Below are positions 16,750 through 21,960 of a DNA stretch of 64,000 bases, piece after piece. The position numbers and the translations under genes were made by a program. The notes below the pieces were generated by a model. It had not been told where the DNA came from and did not search any database. It saw nothing but the letters and a program-made list of their open reading frames with translations. Each line of letters begins with the position of its first letter. The first letter of the stretch is position 1. The DNA is from a virus: IMG/VR virus record IMGVR_UViG_3300025120_000019; one strand, written 5' to 3'.

Positions 16750-17763
16750 TTGTTTAAAAAATCAGCAGTTTTTACAGACCTACATTTAGGTATGAAAGGT
16801 AATTCTCGTGTCCATAATCAGGATTGCGAAGATTATATTAATTGGTATATTGACACAGCCAAAGCAAATAATTGCGAAACTGGTATATTTTGTGGAGATT
16901 GGCATCATAACCGTAATAGTTTAAATTTAACTACTATGGATCATACAATTCGATGCTTAGAAAAGCTAGGTCAATCGTTTGAAAACTTCTATATGTTTGC
17001 CGGTAATCACGATTTGTACTATAAAGACAAACGTGATGTAAAGTCTACAGAGTTTGCTAGACATATACCCGGTATTACTGTTATAGAAGATATATTGGTT
17101 AAAGAGGATGTAGCGTTAGTTCCTTGGTTAGTAGGTGACGAATGGCACCGTATAGAGAAGCTACAATCTAAGTATTTGTTTGGTCATTTTGAACTTCCTA
17201 GTTTTTATATGAACGCTATGGTACAGATGCCAGACCACGGTGAACTAAAAGCTGAACATTTTAAAAATCAAGAGTATGTGTTTAGTGGACATTTCCATAA
17301 AAGACAAAAGCAAGGAAAAATACACTACATTGGTAATGCATTTCCACACAATTATGCTGATGCATGGGACGATGCACGTGGAATGATGATACTTGATAGA
17401 GAAAATAACAAAGAACCAGAGTATATTGACTGGATAGACTGTCCTAAATATAGAACAGTAAAGCTATCTCAACTAATTGATGAGAAAGACACGTTAATCA
17501 AACCAAATATGTATCTAAGGGTAACACTAGATTTGCCTATAAGTTATGAAGAAGCAAGTTATGTAAAAGAAACCTTTATAGATCAATACGAATGTAGAGA
17601 AATTACGCTAATACCGCAAAAACACCTAGAAGAGATTAATACTGAACTGGATATTGAGCAATTTGAAAGTGTTGATCAAATAGTAAGCAACGAAATACAA
17701 GCAATCGACAGCGAACAGTTTAATAAGAAACTGCTATTAGACATTTATAACGAGTTAGCATGA
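16750..17763 (+). CDS. gp47: Recombination endonuclease subunit, Mre11/SbcD-like
   Basis: Metallophosphoesterase motifs DLH.G, GDW.H, GNHD, GHFE, SGHFH. Confidence 0.92.
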   Translation: MFKKSAVFTDLHLGMKGNSRVHNQDCEDYINWYIDTAKANNCETGIFCGDWHHNRNSLNLTTMDHTIRCLEKLGQSFENFYMFAGNHDLYYKDKRDVKSTEFARHIPGITVIEDILVKEDVALVPWLVGDEWHRIEKLQSKYLFGHFELPSFYMNAMVQMPDHGELKAEHFKNQEYVFSGHFHKRQKQGKIHYIGNAFPHNYADAWDDARGMMILDRENNKEPEYIDWIDCPKYRTVKLSQLIDEKDTLIKPNMYLRVTLDLPISYEEASYVKETFIDQYECREITLIPQKHLEEINTELDIEQFESVDQIVSNEIQAIDSEQFNKKLLLDIYNELA

Positions 17764-19538
17764 TAAAAATAAAAGACCTAACAGTAAAGAACTTTATGAG
17801 TGTAGGTAATGTTACACAAGCTATCGACTTTAATAAAGAACAACTAACATTGGTTCTAGGAGAGAACCTAGACCAGGGTGGTGACGATACTGGATCACGT
17901 AATGGTACAGGTAAAACAACCATCATTAATGCATTAAGTTATGCATTGTACGGCACGGCTCTTACTAACATAAAACGTAACAATCTTATCAATAAAACGA
18001 ACTCAAAAGGTATGCTTGTTACTTTAAATTTTGAAAAAAATAACAACAAATATCGAATTGAACGAGGAAGATCTCCAAATGTTCTTAAATTTTATATAAA
18101 TGAACATGAACAAGAGGACGATTTAACTAACGAGTCACAAGGAGATAGTAGAAAGACTCAAGAAGATATAAATTCACTAATTAGTATGAGTCATGATATG
18201 TTCAAGCACGTTGTTGCATTGAATACATACACCGAACCTTTTTTAAGTATGCGAGCTAACGATCAAAGGGCTATTATTGAACAGTTACTTGGTATAACAA
18301 TACTAACCGAGAAGGCAGAAGTACTAAGAGAAAAGGTAAAAGCAACAAAAGATAGTATCGCCGAAGAAACAATTAAAATAAATGCAATAGAAGCAAGCAA
18401 TAAAAAGATCGAAGAAAGCATAAATCAATTAGCTAGTAGACAAAAAGCTTGGGTATCTAAGCAAAATATAGATATTGAAAAATTTTCTAGTGCTATAACA
18501 GAATTAGAGCAGTTAGATATTAACAACGAACTAGATTCTCACGAAAAACTTACAAACTGGATTGAGCATAATAATAGATTAACAAGTTTAAACAAAGAAA
18601 AAGCAACATTAGAAGCCGCACTAATGAGAGCAAATAAAAGTGTTACTAAAGCACAAAAAGATACACAAGATCTCGATGACGCTGTGTGTTATACTTGTGG
18701 GCAAGCTTTACCTGGTGATAAAAAAGCAGAAATACAAGAAAGAAAACAAAAAGAACTTGATGATGCTATAGCATATGAAAAAGAAGTTACTAGAAAACTA
18801 GATGCTACTATGTCTTTTTTAAATGAAATAGGTGATATAAATGGTAAGCCAACAACATTTTATGAAACAGCGAAAGAAGCTTATGAACATAGAAACAACG
18901 TGGATAATTTACGTCAAGCACTAGTAAGTAAAGAGCAAGAAGAAGATCCTTATCAAGGACAGATAGATGATTTAACAAATACTGCACTACAAGCTATAGT
19001 TTGGGATAGTGTAAACGAACTAACTAATTTAAAAGATCATCAGGAGTTTTTATTAAAGCTATTGACAAATAAAGATTCTTTCATAAGAAAAAAGATAATC
19101 GATCAAAACTTAGCATATCTTAATAACAGACTTACATACTATTTAGACAAACTAGGCTTACCGCATCAGGTTTTATTTCAAAATGATTTGAGTGTAGAAA
19201 TTACACAATTAGGACAGGATTTAGACTTTGATAATTTATCAAGAGGCGAACGTAATAGACTAATACTAGGTATGAGTTTTGCATTCCGTGACGTTTGGGA
19301 ATCATTATATCAAGGTGTTAACTTACTTTTTATTGATGAGCTAATAGACTCAGGAATGGATACTGCCGGAGTAGAAGGTGCTTTAGCTGTATTGAAAAGA
19401 ATGGGTCGAGAAAGAAGAAAAAATGTTTTTCTAATTTCTCATAAAGACGAACTTGTTGGGCGTGTTAATCATGTTATGAAAGTTATAAAAGAAAACGGCT
19501 TTACAAGTTATGAAAATGATGTGGACATAGTAGAATGA
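17760..19538 (+). CDS. gp46: Recombination ATPase subunit, Rad50/SbcC-like
   Basis: KNFMSVG, Walker A NGTGKTT, coiled coil with CYTC zinc hook, signature LSRGE, Walker B LLFIDE, H-loop ISHK. Confidence 0.93.
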   Translation: MIKIKDLTVKNFMSVGNVTQAIDFNKEQLTLVLGENLDQGGDDTGSRNGTGKTTIINALSYALYGTALTNIKRNNLINKTNSKGMLVTLNFEKNNNKYRIERGRSPNVLKFYINEHEQEDDLTNESQGDSRKTQEDINSLISMSHDMFKHVVALNTYTEPFLSMRANDQRAIIEQLLGITILTEKAEVLREKVKATKDSIAEETIKINAIEASNKKIEESINQLASRQKAWVSKQNIDIEKFSSAITELEQLDINNELDSHEKLTNWIEHNNRLTSLNKEKATLEAALMRANKSVTKAQKDTQDLDDAVCYTCGQALPGDKKAEIQERKQKELDDAIAYEKEVTRKLDATMSFLNEIGDINGKPTTFYETAKEAYEHRNNVDNLRQALVSKEQEEDPYQGQIDDLTNTALQAIVWDSVNELTNLKDHQEFLLKLLTNKDSFIRKKIIDQNLAYLNNRLTYYLDKLGLPHQVLFQNDLSVEITQLGQDLDFDNLSRGERNRLILGMSFAFRDVWESLYQGVNLLFIDELIDSGMDTAGVEGALAVLKRMGRERRKNVFLISHKDELVGRVNHVMKVIKENGFTSYENDVDIVE

Positions 19539-19783
19539 ACGATGATACACATGATCAACTTGTAAAAATATATTTAGAATACTTTAAGGCAAACGAACAA
19601 TTTGAAAGAGCTCCTAGTCTAAGAACAAAAAGAAATACTAGAGAGTTATTAAGAAAACTACGTGACTTAGCAAAAATAAGGCAAAACGAAATTAAAGAAA
19701 AATACGACATTGTACTTGAAGATATAAGAGCATCTGGTAAATGGGCAGGCAATATAGGTAAATCAAAAAAGACAAAAAAATAA
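19535..19783 (+). CDS. Small basic helical protein, possibly Hc1-like DNA-binding protein
   Basis: 82 aa, K/R-rich, FE...RNTRELLRKLRDLAKIRQNEI pattern; overlaps the gp46 stop (ATGA). Confidence 0.5.
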   Translation: MNDDTHDQLVKIYLEYFKANEQFERAPSLRTKRNTRELLRKLRDLAKIRQNEIKEKYDIVLEDIRASGKWAGNIGKSKKTKK

Positions 19784-19804
19784 AACGGTTTGTATACATA
19801 AAGT

Positions 19805-20239
19805 ATGAGTTGGTTATATAAAGGAAAACAAGTTAAAGAAATTTCAGATGTATATGAAGGATTTGTTTACTTAATAACAAACTTAAAAGATAACCGTAAG
19901 TATGTAGGCAAGAAACTAGCAAAATTTAAAACAACCAAGCCACCATTAAAAGGCAAAAAAAACAAACGCAGAGGTCATAAAGAAAGTGACTGGCGTGAAT
20001 ACTGGGGAAGTTCAGACAGACTGAACGAAGATGTAAAAAACTTAGGCCAAAAAAACTTTACTCGAGAAATACTTTATTTTTGTAAGTCTCGCGGTGAAAT
20101 GTCATACTTAGAGGCAAGAGAACAATTTGAAAGACGTGTACTGGAAACAGATGAATACTATAATGGTATTATCAATGTAAGAGTAGGCGGTTCAAACATA
20201 CTTAGAGAAAATTTAAAGGCACATCAGGACACTGTTTAA
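19805..20239 (+). CDS. Stand-alone GIY-YIG family endonuclease (144 aa)
   Basis: GFVYLITNLKDNRKYVGKK (GIY-x10-YIG), YWGSS, conserved E (YLEAREQ) and YYN. Confidence 0.8.
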   Translation: MSWLYKGKQVKEISDVYEGFVYLITNLKDNRKYVGKKLAKFKTTKPPLKGKKNKRRGHKESDWREYWGSSDRLNEDVKNLGQKNFTREILYFCKSRGEMSYLEAREQFERRVLETDEYYNGIINVRVGGSNILRENLKAHQDTV

Positions 20240-20240
20240 A

Positions 20241-20500
20241 AGCCAAAATCCAGCCGAGGTAATGCTCGTCGCCGGTGGAGTGGTATCGTCCAACAGGCTG
20301 TATGCTACGAAAACCCTTTAGCTATAGGAACGAAGCGAGGGATAGCACTAAATTAGTGTGATGTCGACGTAGGTTGGGAAAGGTCAGAGCCCAGTAGCAA
20401 AGTCAAACACCTACTTCCGATCTCGGCCATGCTACTCGTATGAAGCTGGAGAAGGTGGAACCGCTAGTAGGTTCCGTCTGACCAATTTATCTGTATGAAA
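20241..20500 (+). ncRNA. Candidate structured non-coding RNA (or DNA origin element) downstream of the GIY-YIG gene
   Basis: About 51% GC over 20241-20480 by manual count; no ORF in the track. Nested helices GCCGAGGT 20253-60/ATCTCGGC 20420-27, GTAGGT 20369-74/ACCTAC 20409-14, TGGG/CCCA, GCACTA/TAGTGT and GGAACC 20457-62/GGTTCC 20470-75. Strand inferred from neighbours. Confidence 0.5.
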
Positions 20501-20584
20501 CATAAGTGCTTCGCACTTAAATTATAATAAAAATGTGTTTGAGCAAAAGCGAAAACACAGATGAACATCGTTCATCTTAGAATA

Positions 20585-20592
20585 TATAAATA
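20585..20592 (+). promoter_or_regulatory. T4-type late promoter TATAAATA
   Basis: Exact T4 late consensus 28 nt before ATG 20620. Confidence 0.7.
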
Positions 20593-20619
20593 CATACATA
20601 ACAGTTGGAACAACTCTGA

Positions 20620-21960
20620 ATGAAAATAATACAGATTATAAACGAAGAAGTACCAAAAGGAACTGTCGTAGAAATAGACGGTAACAAGTTCACATGGCTT
20701 GGAGCTCAGTGGAAAAATGTTGCAACAAACAAGCTTGCAAGTAAAGCTGATAATAAAAAAATAAATGCTCTTCCTTCAGTAAAAGAATTAAAAGTATCTA
20801 ATAAAGTAGGAAACTTATCAATAGATAATAAAACTGTTTCATCACAAATGGTTGGCAAAGACAAGTTTGTTGTTACTTTTCAAGAAACAGAAAATGGAAA
20901 AAAAGTAAATCGTTCTGTTAGATTCAAAGATCCTAAATTAGCGGCAGGTGTTGCAAAGTCAATCAGAGAAGGTATGACTTTTAAGCAAGCATCAAAAGTT
21001 TTACCTAAAGATAGTTATAAAATATTAAACGTTGGTAAACTAATGACTAGCTTTAACATTGGTAGGTCAATGTCTAAGAGTCAAATAGATGCTTACATTG
21101 ACAAAGTAAAGGCAAAAGGAGCTAATGCACCTGGTGCCCAGAGATTCTTAAAAATAGTTAATGGCAAAATGTGGCAAGCTCTTGGAAGGTTCGGAGGGTT
21201 TGCTGGATTTCAATACTTACTTTATCAAACATTTGTTATTAACTATGATCAGGTGTTAACAGCTCCAGAAGACAGTTTTGAAAGTCCTGAAGGTAGACAA
21301 GAATTACTAGATGTAATTACTGGATTATATTCAACTCAAGTTATTCTTGGTATTGTTGCAATTTTAAGATCTGCTAAATTAACAAAATCATTTATAAACT
21401 TACTAAGAGCTCCAATAAGGGCATTTCAGGCAGGCGCATTGGTAACAGGAGCCGGAACAGTACCTGCTATTATTACAGCTATAGTTACTGAAGGTGCTTT
21501 TTTTGTTGCACTTTATGCCCTTTCAAATCCAACTGTACAAATGGAACTTGCCAAATATATTGCAAGCACAAGTGGAGGTGTCTTTTTTATAGGAGGCATA
21601 GGAAATTTAGCAAACAGTTCTATGCAAGTCCTTGATAGTTTAACAAACGGAGCCTTAGGTGGTGAAAGTTTACGAGATGCTATTGGTTTCAAAAAAGGCG
21701 TTACTAAGATGCCATCAGGAACTGCTTGGGCTTCTAGTGAATGGGCAAAACTTGCATTCCAAGATATGATTTTTCCTCCAGACATGGAAAAAATAAAAGT
21801 ACCCTATCTGTCTCCTGAGCGAAGAAGAAATGCAATATTTATTGCACTAGAAATGAAAGCACCTACTAGTACTACTACTAATCAACCTGCTCCAGGCCCT
21901 GGAGATCCTTCTGTACCTGGACTACCAACTAATCCAGATGCTCCGGCTGTACCACAGTAG
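20620..21960 (+). CDS. Late hypothetical protein with several hydrophobic helices; possible internal/ejected virion protein
   Basis: 446-aa ORF after a late promoter; basic N-half, hydrophobic Gly/Ala segments in the C-half, Pro-rich tail. Confidence 0.6.
   Translation: MKIIQIINEEVPKGTVVEIDGNKFTWLGAQWKNVATNKLASKADNKKINALPSVKELKVSNKVGNLSIDNKTVSSQMVGKDKFVVTFQETENGKKVNRSVRFKDPKLAAGVAKSIREGMTFKQASKVLPKDSYKILNVGKLMTSFNIGRSMSKSQIDAYIDKVKAKGANAPGAQRFLKIVNGKMWQALGRFGGFAGFQYLLYQTFVINYDQVLTAPEDSFESPEGRQELLDVITGLYSTQVILGIVAILRSAKLTKSFINLLRAPIRAFQAGALVTGAGTVPAIITAIVTEGAFFVALYALSNPTVQMELAKYIASTSGGVFFIGGIGNLANSSMQVLDSLTNGALGGESLRDAIGFKKGVTKMPSGTAWASSEWAKLAFQDMIFPPDMEKIKVPYLSPERRRNAIFIALEMKAPTSTTTNQPAPGPGDPSVPGLPTNPDAPAVPQ

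Follow-up and report, generated by a model that had tools for sequence, protein, structure and literature searches.

A putative structured RNA with two co-varying 7-mers behind a SegE-type GIY-YIG nuclease gene in uncultured T4-related marine phages

The IMG/VR virus record IMGVR_UViG_3300025120_000019 comes from an uncultured T4-related marine phage, and the 64,000-nucleotide stretch of it analysed here (the 64-kb window; gene list from open reading frame (ORF) calls) contains, directly behind a gene for a 144-aa GIY-YIG nuclease, an ORF-free gap whose core (20249-20502) is predicted to encode a plus-strand structured RNA with many helices and long invariant unpaired stretches. Our favoured reading, to which we assign a probability of roughly 0.5, is that this is a new structured RNA acting as a scaffold that presents two identical 7-mers, R1 and R2, to one co-evolving partner, and that it is present once, always at the same position, in the genomes of a clade of giant marine phages related to T4. 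An earlier note on the window had proposed that the RNA supplies specificity to the nuclease or regulates it; the comparison of related loci argues for a new structured RNA family and leaves an RNA-guided or RNA-regulated nuclease unsupported. If expressed, the element would represent a large double-pseudoknotted RNA family, found in several hundred contigs of uncultured marine phages and matched by no described family.

With the nuclease as query, 590 of 600 candidate stretches in IMG/VR were confirmed, and the best 80 loci were compared. Each locus reaching far enough carried an ORF-free stretch of 300-750 nt after the nuclease, and the 46 distinct gaps sorted into sequence classes: class A with a window-like core, class C with the class A core plus a 5' extension, class B with another core sequence on the same plan, class D as a diverged subgroup of class B, and the more remote class E. 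Class A/C sequences were gathered with an 18-mer from the core, which is contained in about 650 IMG/VR stretches, and 98 distinct ones were aligned over 20281-20501 with MAFFT (alignment A1). The elements predicted for the window are the following.

20249-20295, plus strand: 5' module including a local hairpin (20255-58/20265-68), swappable between classes
20303-20399, plus strand: helix P_a, TGCTAC (20303-08) with GTAGCA (20394-99), enclosing P_b, P_c and P_e
20314-20341, plus strand: hairpin P_b (20314-18/20337-41) with the near-invariant loop TAGCNNTAGGAACGAAGC
20346-20358, plus strand: variable hairpin P_c (20346-49/20355-58)
20369-20414, plus strand: helix P_d, GTAGGT (20369-74) with ACCTAC (20409-14), which crosses P_a and thereby forms a pseudoknot
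20375-20393, plus strand: hairpin P_e, TGGG/CCCA, with the conserved loop AAAGGTCAGAG
20382-20483, plus strand: loop-tail pseudoknot, GGTCA (20382-86, in the P_e loop) with TGACC (20479-83)
20438-20444, plus strand: R1, GTATGAA, after an invariant ACTC
20454-20478, plus strand: hairpin H (20454-62/20470-78), between R1 and R2
20493-20499, plus strand: R2, GTATGAA, after an invariant ATCT

Mutual information, computed with no prior assumption, peaked on the columns of P_a. MAFFT left the variants of this helix out of register, and it was tested directly by matching the hexamer that precedes the A-run against the bases that follow CCCA. Six contiguous pairs were formed with the own partner in 92 of the 98 sequences, compared to 57 of 1214 cross-type pairings, in which 5' strands differing at two or more positions were combined with foreign 3' strands. 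Overall, P_a occurred in 14 complementary versions (e.g. TGCTAC/GTAGCA, TACACA/TGTGTA, AGTTCA/TGAACT and GCTCCA/TGGAGC), while P_b showed three two-sided compensatory pairs (CG 47/UA 45; CG 79/GC 19; UA 59/CG 29), and the covariation that the earlier note had suggested looking for was found in these two helices. One pair of P_c (20346-20358) covaried as well (CG 45, TA 17, AT 10), and length variation in the alignment indicates that, in relatives, up to about 100 nt can be inserted at the site of this hairpin.

The remaining helices were paired almost throughout. P_d was paired in 100% of cells, with one pair reading GC 89/GU 9, and its equivalent in class B appears by eye in compensatory versions (AGAG/CTCT, AGAA/TTCT and TGAG/CTCA). 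P_e was paired in 99.7% of cells and is invariant within class A/C; class B has GGGGG/CCTCC at its place, again by eye. H was paired in 99.2% of cells with many G-U variants (UG 74/CG 19; AU 75/GU 23); in class B its place is taken by TTCGCCCGG...CGGGCGAA, in class E by ACACTTGGCC...GGCTAAGTGT. The loop-tail pairing was present in 100% of cells (GU 81/GC 17 and CG 95/UG 3), and RNAalifold adds a pairing of GAG (20387-89) with CTC (20435-37) that can form in 98/98 sequences. Both are compatible with the data and, because the changes are one-sided only, short of proof; together they would turn the 3' part of the RNA into a junction built on the P_e loop. Taken together, P_b, P_d, P_e, the loop-tail pairing and H were paired in 98.7% of 2837 cells, compared to 96.2% in shuffles (0 of 500 reached the observed value) and 33-50% with slid partners. 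Hundreds of G-U cells would become A-C mismatches on the minus strand, indicating that the plus strand is the functional one, and the view that G-U pairs favour an RNA, already held from the window alone, was borne out on the 98 aligned sequences. The 8-bp helix 20253-60/20420-27 described at the same time can be drawn, but a crude own-versus-shuffled test did not tell it apart (7.54 vs 7.23), and no compensatory change was found in it, only conservation.

In other class A loci, the position of the 5' hairpin holds a hairpin of different sequence (by eye), and the window itself is a mosaic, 20240-20286 (47 nt) being 89-94% identical to class B loci (L024-L077) and the core belonging to class A. 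The combination of a class B-like 5' module with a class A core suggests that modules of the RNA are exchanged between phage lineages by recombination. Most class A/C relatives also carry an extra conserved 5' domain with covarying pairs (CCAAC...GGTTGGCGGGCCAGTTT...ACCGCTGTGG), seen about 130-300 nt upstream of the P_a equivalent in L056, L071 and L080 (class C); the window is without it and carries a reduced form of the RNA.

What is most unusual about the element is the identity of R1 and R2. The direct repeat GTATGAA at 20438-44 and 20493-99 around a hairpin had been pointed out before and is present; a 7-nt repeat within 260 nt has a chance expectation of about 2 in one sequence (simple arithmetic), and it is the comparison between loci that takes the repeat far beyond chance. 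R1 and R2 were identical in 93 of 95 rows of alignment A1, compared to 50 on average and at most 60 in partner shuffles, and the two discordant rows were one position off in one copy. Nine versions of R were found in class A/C (ACATGAA 68, ACATAAT 10, GTATGAA 6, ACATGAT 3, GCATAAA 2, ACGTGAA 2, GCATGAA 2, ACATGAG 1 and ACATAAA 1). Five further versions stood in both copies in class B/D (GAATAAT, GAATGAT, AGATGAA, AGACGAA and AGATGAT, with L049 discordant), and in class E the two copies agreed in eight of ten loci, reading TGTCAAG, TGCCAAG or GGTGAAG on either side of a hairpin whose sequence is unrelated. In a set of 81 loci, all but one of those reaching beyond R2 had R1 = R2. The seventeen versions thus require at least 16 concerted changes. 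The identity is confined to the seven positions, as the three bases 5' of the copies are always CTC (R1) and TCT (R2), identical in 0/95 rows, and the two bases 3' match in only about 40% of rows, which argues against homogenisation of a longer repeat. The spacing from R1 to R2 was 55-60 nt in 67 loci.

Several simple explanations of the 7-mers were rejected. The ATG in R1 stands in frames 0/1/2 relative to a conserved TGA in 31/18/33 sequences; because the frames are mixed and no long frame exists, the R1-R2 module is taken to be non-coding, and a small ORF or translational bypass through it is excluded. Positions 4-6 of R read TGA or TAA in classes A-D, and anticodon-loop, start-codon and stop-codon readings are misfitted by TGTCAAG and GGTGAAG of class E and by AGACGAA. 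A minus-strand promoter was inconsistent between classes. A complement of R in cis, allowing wobble pairs, was found within -450 to +200 nt in just 23 of 153 sequences and at one variable place, and complements of R in the window occurred at the chance rate only. R did not covary with the beginning of either the GIY-YIG gene or the gene that follows the element, and a search for inverted repeats of R in 432 sequences returned only a hairpin downstream of the core (hp3, see below), whose stem reads AGATGAA and does not follow the R type of the locus. The identity of R1 and R2 is a covariation that ordinary base pairing fails to explain. The pattern implies a reader of 7 nt, which may be a dimeric protein, a nucleic acid in trans or an internal receptor, and it poses a concrete question that is open to mutation of one copy, the other or both.

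The place of the RNA in the genome was examined next to the genes in front of it, which are arranged in the window as follows.

16750-17763: gp47 (ORF list)
17760-19538: gp46 (ORF list)
19535-19783: 82-aa ORF, orf82 (ORF list)
19805-20239, plus strand: 144-aa SegE-type GIY-YIG gene (ORF, Pfam PF19835 and PHROG 447)
20240-20619: ORF-free gap of 380 nt

The order gp47-gp46-orf82-nuclease was kept in all of the best 80 loci, except where the contig ends early, with a nuclease identity of 78-90% across these syntenic loci, which were picked for similarity to the nuclease. When the RNA was searched for first, the nuclease gene was found upstream on the same strand in 103/103 class A/C loci with at least 350 nt available upstream, and in 22/22 class B loci (78 of 119 15-mer matches were chance). 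All RNA loci were syntenic (gp47-gp46-orf82-GIY-RNA) and belonged to one phage clade, and therefore the linkage tells no more about the nuclease than about gp46. A second bait, the homologue of phage Melnitz (70% identical, located after nrdB), retrieved 80 loci. Of the nuclease homologues of about 65-70% identity without gp46 in front and with 400 nt or more of sequence behind, 0/13 carried the RNA, compared to 38 of 48 homologues in the gp46 context that were positive by nhmmer; of the ten negative loci, eight carried the class E module and two, by eye, a class B-like P_b hairpin. In the material examined, the nuclease family exists without the RNA, and the RNA was never seen without the nuclease. 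The linkage that the earlier note had wanted checked in related genomes thus held from the side of the RNA and not from that of the nuclease, which is a fixed neighbour and not a demonstrated partner; the link is positional only. More generally, a nuclease gene beside a structured RNA need not be a guide system, as plain synteny accounts for the arrangement here.

We confirmed that the nuclease is essentially a catalytic domain only, as had been read from its translation. Pfam PF19835 (SegE_GIY-YIG) matched residues 3-123 with profile positions 1-123 of 123, i.e. over the full profile (E 3.5e-34; 118.1 bits compared to a cut-off of 25), the Pfam scan of the protein returned no other domain, and PHROG 447, a profile of 148 positions, matched with E 3.4e-37. 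Because PF19835 fills residues 3-123 and the PHROG profile has only 148 positions, the protein is predicted to consist of the catalytic domain followed by a tail of 21 aa, which leaves no space for a DNA-binding domain. Candidate counterparts of the GIY and YIG motifs in the translation are FVY (residues 20-22) and YVG (33-35); a sequence search returned no relative of solved structure. Free-standing homing behaviour like that of Seg enzymes does not fit the distribution of the gene, which sits at a fixed place in 80/80 loci (chosen by similarity) and in 103/103 loci found through the RNA and not sporadically, nor does it fit a protein in which no second domain was found. A second lineage of the nuclease lies after ribonucleotide reductase genes (phage Melnitz, L001 2993-3581, and loci L322-L340), where the gene is followed by a short gap with TATAAATA and no structured RNA. 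The presence of copies in such other contexts suggests that the nuclease gene moved between genomic contexts in the past.

Based on these results, we propose that the RNA would be made as the 3' part of a gp47-gp46-orf82-GIY transcript, since no promoter of its own was seen; a pattern scan of the window recognised neither a promoter in front of the RNA nor a plus-strand U-tract terminator. The RNA would end at, or be protected by, the downstream hairpins, and its folded core would be a scaffold on which R1 and R2 are displayed as equivalent sites, both recognised by one partner that evolves along with them; this could be a protein acting as a homodimer or a short complementary nucleic acid bound in two copies. 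Alternatively, one receptor could receive the R1 and R2 segments one after the other, as the loop CAGAG is able to pair with CUC as well as with UCU.

A number of observations weigh against the scaffold reading. The folding energy of the single sequence was ordinary compared to shuffles (z -0.34 on the plus and -0.82 on the minus strand), and therefore all real evidence for the RNA is comparative. P_d, P_e and both pseudoknot pairings are near-invariant in class A/C and rest on one-sided G-U changes and the comparison with class B by eye; in addition, the 18-mer bait lies inside P_d/P_e, so that invariance is forced there. In the RNAalifold prediction, 20369-76 is paired with a stretch that lies just in front of R2 and reaches into it, and this competition for the 5' strand of P_d makes an alternative fold possible. 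The wobbles, read as G-T, are equally compatible with single-stranded DNA. As for the partner, no consistent exact complement of R was found within 3 kb on either side, and comparison of the window with a 236-kb and a 105-kb contig (three R types) over 32-44 kb aligned per pair revealed no co-varying partner of R at homologous sites.

Among the competing explanations, a role of the RNA as cofactor of the GIY-YIG nuclease, be it as guide, specificity subunit or regulator with the specificity coming from R1/R2, is quite unlikely. It would agree with the inseparability of RNA and gene in the clade (103/103 and 22/22 loci), with the bare catalytic domain of the protein and with an R that is short, lineage-variable and exposed. 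However, the linkage is the plain synteny of one clade, the RNA is missing from all 13 homologues elsewhere, and GIY-YIG proteins that are 97.9% identical go with different R types, so that R changes without obvious protein change. The guide-like variable segment that the earlier note had suggested looking for does exist as the internal, duplicated 7-mer, but no target of R was found, either as inverted-repeat sites in the 432 sequences or as a co-varying site. No RNA-guided GIY-YIG enzyme turned up in the literature, and we know of none. The chances are slim for the more specific version in which the RNA is a specificity subunit whose two 7-mers pair with a target built as an inverted repeat, one 7-mer on each strand, or else with two sites, while two nuclease copies cut both strands; if true, this would be the first RNA-guided GIY-YIG enzyme, and the lineage-specific 7-mer would be a rapidly evolving address in phage-phage conflicts. 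The proposal that the RNA gives specificity to or regulates the nuclease was thus not upheld, with the linkage explained by synteny and 0/13 homologues elsewhere carrying the RNA, and the independent non-coding RNA that had been named as a fallback fits better. A replication-origin transcript, i.e. a folded pre-primer acting at its own locus like ColE1 RNA II, with the hairpins as loading sites on the displaced strand, is likewise unlikely. The element, which is single-copy and lies beside gp46/gp47 at the border of the replication/recombination and late structural modules, has a folded region rich in GC and, behind it, an AT-rich stretch and conserved hairpins, which would suit such a transcript; yet no promoter was recognised upstream, an R-loop needs neither R1 = R2 nor long invariant unpaired loops, and the origins of T4 differ in that they consist of a middle promoter and an unwinding element and not of a pseudoknotted RNA.

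We see little probability in a passive 3' untranslated region that stabilises the transcript end or insulates early/middle from late genes with no function in trans. The location between a stop codon, which the element directly follows, and the three hairpins with the late promoter would suit it, whereas two pseudoknots, invariant loops and R1 = R2 in an element of about 250-700 nt far exceed the needs of end protection, and no plus-strand intrinsic terminator pattern was found. The prospects are similarly poor for an RNA that acts as a ribozyme or processes itself, with R1 and R2 as equivalent sites of cleavage, ligation or template translocation, so that the 55-60 nt unit of R plus hairpin would be excised or copied repeatedly. 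The pseudoknotted core with invariant unpaired nucleotides and the identical short sequences bounding a hairpin unit of near-constant length (55-60 nt) are what such an RNA might look like: direct repeats at template borders are a hallmark of template translocation in telomerase and DRT2, and the RNA units of type III antitoxins are bounded by identical sites. Nevertheless, no internal guide complementary to R was found, the ORF list and Pfam gave no reverse transcriptase or ToxN-like gene nearby, and Rfam gave no match to a known ribozyme family. Least probable of all is that the element acts as DNA, either as a single-stranded structure or as two protein-binding direct repeats. Co-varying direct repeats could be two sites of one DNA-binding protein and G-T wobbles do occur in DNA hairpins, but long-range nested and pseudoknotted helices with strand-specific wobbles are typical of RNA, and the insertions in P_c and the variable spacing of 55-60 nt suit RNA hairpins over phased DNA sites.

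Compared to known systems, the element is closest in kind to the large structured orphan RNAs of bacteria and phages that comparative genomics alone has revealed (GOLLD, ROOL and HEARO-type); like them, it was found by covariation in metagenomic phage DNA and is multi-helix, pseudoknotted and GC-rich in an AT-rich genome. Unlike these, it has no Rfam match at all, and to our knowledge a duplicated co-varying 7-mer module is known from none of them. The neighbouring protein matches the catalytic domain of SegE, one of the free-standing GIY-YIG Seg homing endonucleases of phage T4, over the full profile, and differs from the Seg enzymes by its 144 aa with no DNA-binding tail and by its fixed instead of sporadic position. 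OMEGA/HEARO systems (IscB or TnpB with an omega RNA) share the small nuclease gene adjoining a long structured RNA with a short variable segment. In contrast to them, the fold of the present nuclease is GIY-YIG instead of RuvC/HNH, a transposon end is missing, as is an Rfam match to HEARO, the short variable sequence stands inside the RNA in two copies, and homologues of the nuclease occur where the RNA does not; the likeness to OMEGA/HEARO drawn in the earlier note did not hold, given the type of protein, the missing Rfam match and a nuclease that is not always accompanied by the RNA. ColE1 RNA II is likewise a long folded transcript possibly acting at its own locus and followed by conserved hairpins, and has no pseudoknotted invariant core and no duplicated address. 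In the gene 60 bypass cassette of T4 with the mobE endonuclease, a 50-nt gap with a hairpin in it lies between matching take-off and landing sites, and the present module likewise has identical short sequences around a hairpin near a homing-type endonuclease gene, here with a spacing of 55-60 nt, but no reading frame passes through R1-R2.

The identity of the gap was also addressed by composition and database searches. The longest stop-to-stop frame inside 20240-20619 is 41 aa or less, and the GC content of 20240-20500 is 49.0% compared to 34.4% window-wide, so that the GC-rich non-coding stretch of about 260 nt described previously is real and ORF-free, with a GC content of 49.0% and not about 51%. 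Rfam gave 0 matches at the gathering score in the whole window and chance matches only at E up to 10 over 19700-20700; the Rfam/Infernal search that had been suggested thus assigned the element to no family, HEARO included. ARAGORN found 0 transfer RNA (tRNA) or transfer-messenger RNA (tmRNA) genes in the window, which rules out a tRNA, tmRNA or tRNA-like RNA. A group I intron with a GIY-YIG ORF of the I-TevI type was rejected, as no intron family matched even at E 10 and there is no split host gene: orf82 stops before the nuclease gene and no frame resumes past the element. An intrinsic terminator or simple 3' end was discarded because both terminator-like sites score on the minus strand only. 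Judged from the alignment and the Pfam result, a type III toxin-antitoxin RNA (ToxI-like), defined by tandem repeats of about 36-45 nt beside a ToxN-type endoRNase, does not agree with about 1.2 loosely similar units of which only the 7-mer is exact and with a GIY-YIG neighbour. The element had no blastn match among 50,697 cultured-phage records, and no description of it was found in the literature on phage structured RNAs. A 2023 catalogue contains 8,495 structured-RNA candidates from IMG/VR, each of 29-151 nt (PMC10690425), and fragments of the present RNA may already be in it unnamed; the 18-mer is absent from its searchable tables, whereas its alignments could not be compared.

Between the core and the next gene lie three hairpins and a late promoter.

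20503-20519, plus strand: hp1, 7-bp stem with loop TTC; stem variants GTGC/GCAC and ATGC/GCAT (by eye)
20535-20558, plus strand: hp2, GTGTTT/AAACAC with a 12-nt loop (GAGCGATAGCGA type)
20559-20577, plus strand: hp3, AGATGAAC/GTTCATCT
20585-20592, plus strand: T4-type late promoter TATAAATA for orf446
20620-21960: 446-aa ORF, orf446 (start codon at 20620)

The loop of hp2 (20541-20552) reads GAGCAAAAGCGA in the window, and its motif was found in 40 of the 46 distinct gaps on varying stems (GTGTT/AACAC, AGTTT/AAACT and GTATT/AATAC). The loop is kept across RNA classes whose cores are otherwise unalignable, just 5' of hp3 and the late promoter, and looks like a putative binding site for something. 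At least seven complementary versions of the hp3 stem were seen, and no U-tract follows hp3 on the plus strand. Together with hp1, it is terminator-like only on the minus strand, where T-rich runs follow, and no minus-strand gene runs into either hairpin. The promoter TATAAATA corresponds to the consensus of T4 late promoters, and NTAAATA was found 40-260 nt past R2 in 59 of 62 loci.

The RNA was single-copy in four large contigs, in which a second copy was searched for and none found. One contig of the clade, 236 kb long, has a completeness rating of 66%, and the genomes are therefore probably around 350 kb. The nearest cultured phages are jumbo phages with a gp46 identity of about 48%, of which PA5oct has neither the nuclease gene nor a gap after gp46. 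Among 185,579 prokaryote species genomes, two of 22 matches to a 17-mer were real, and both were phage-like contigs in one metagenome-assembled genome (MAG), again with gp46-orf82-nuclease-RNA. These contigs, L420 (335 kb) and L422 (153 kb), belong to a record titled as a Candidatus Neomarinimicrobiota MAG; they are probably phage contigs and give at most a weak hint about the host.

Of the flanking ORFs, orf82 had no Pfam or PHROG family. It is basic and present between gp46 and the nuclease in all syntenic loci, is poorly conserved across them (36-89% identity), and could be a partner of gp46 or of the nuclease next to it. The late gene orf446, 3' of the element, had no Pfam or PHROG match either; it carries a proline-rich C-terminal tail, and its homologues were just 27-57% identical in loci where the nuclease was 78-90% identical.

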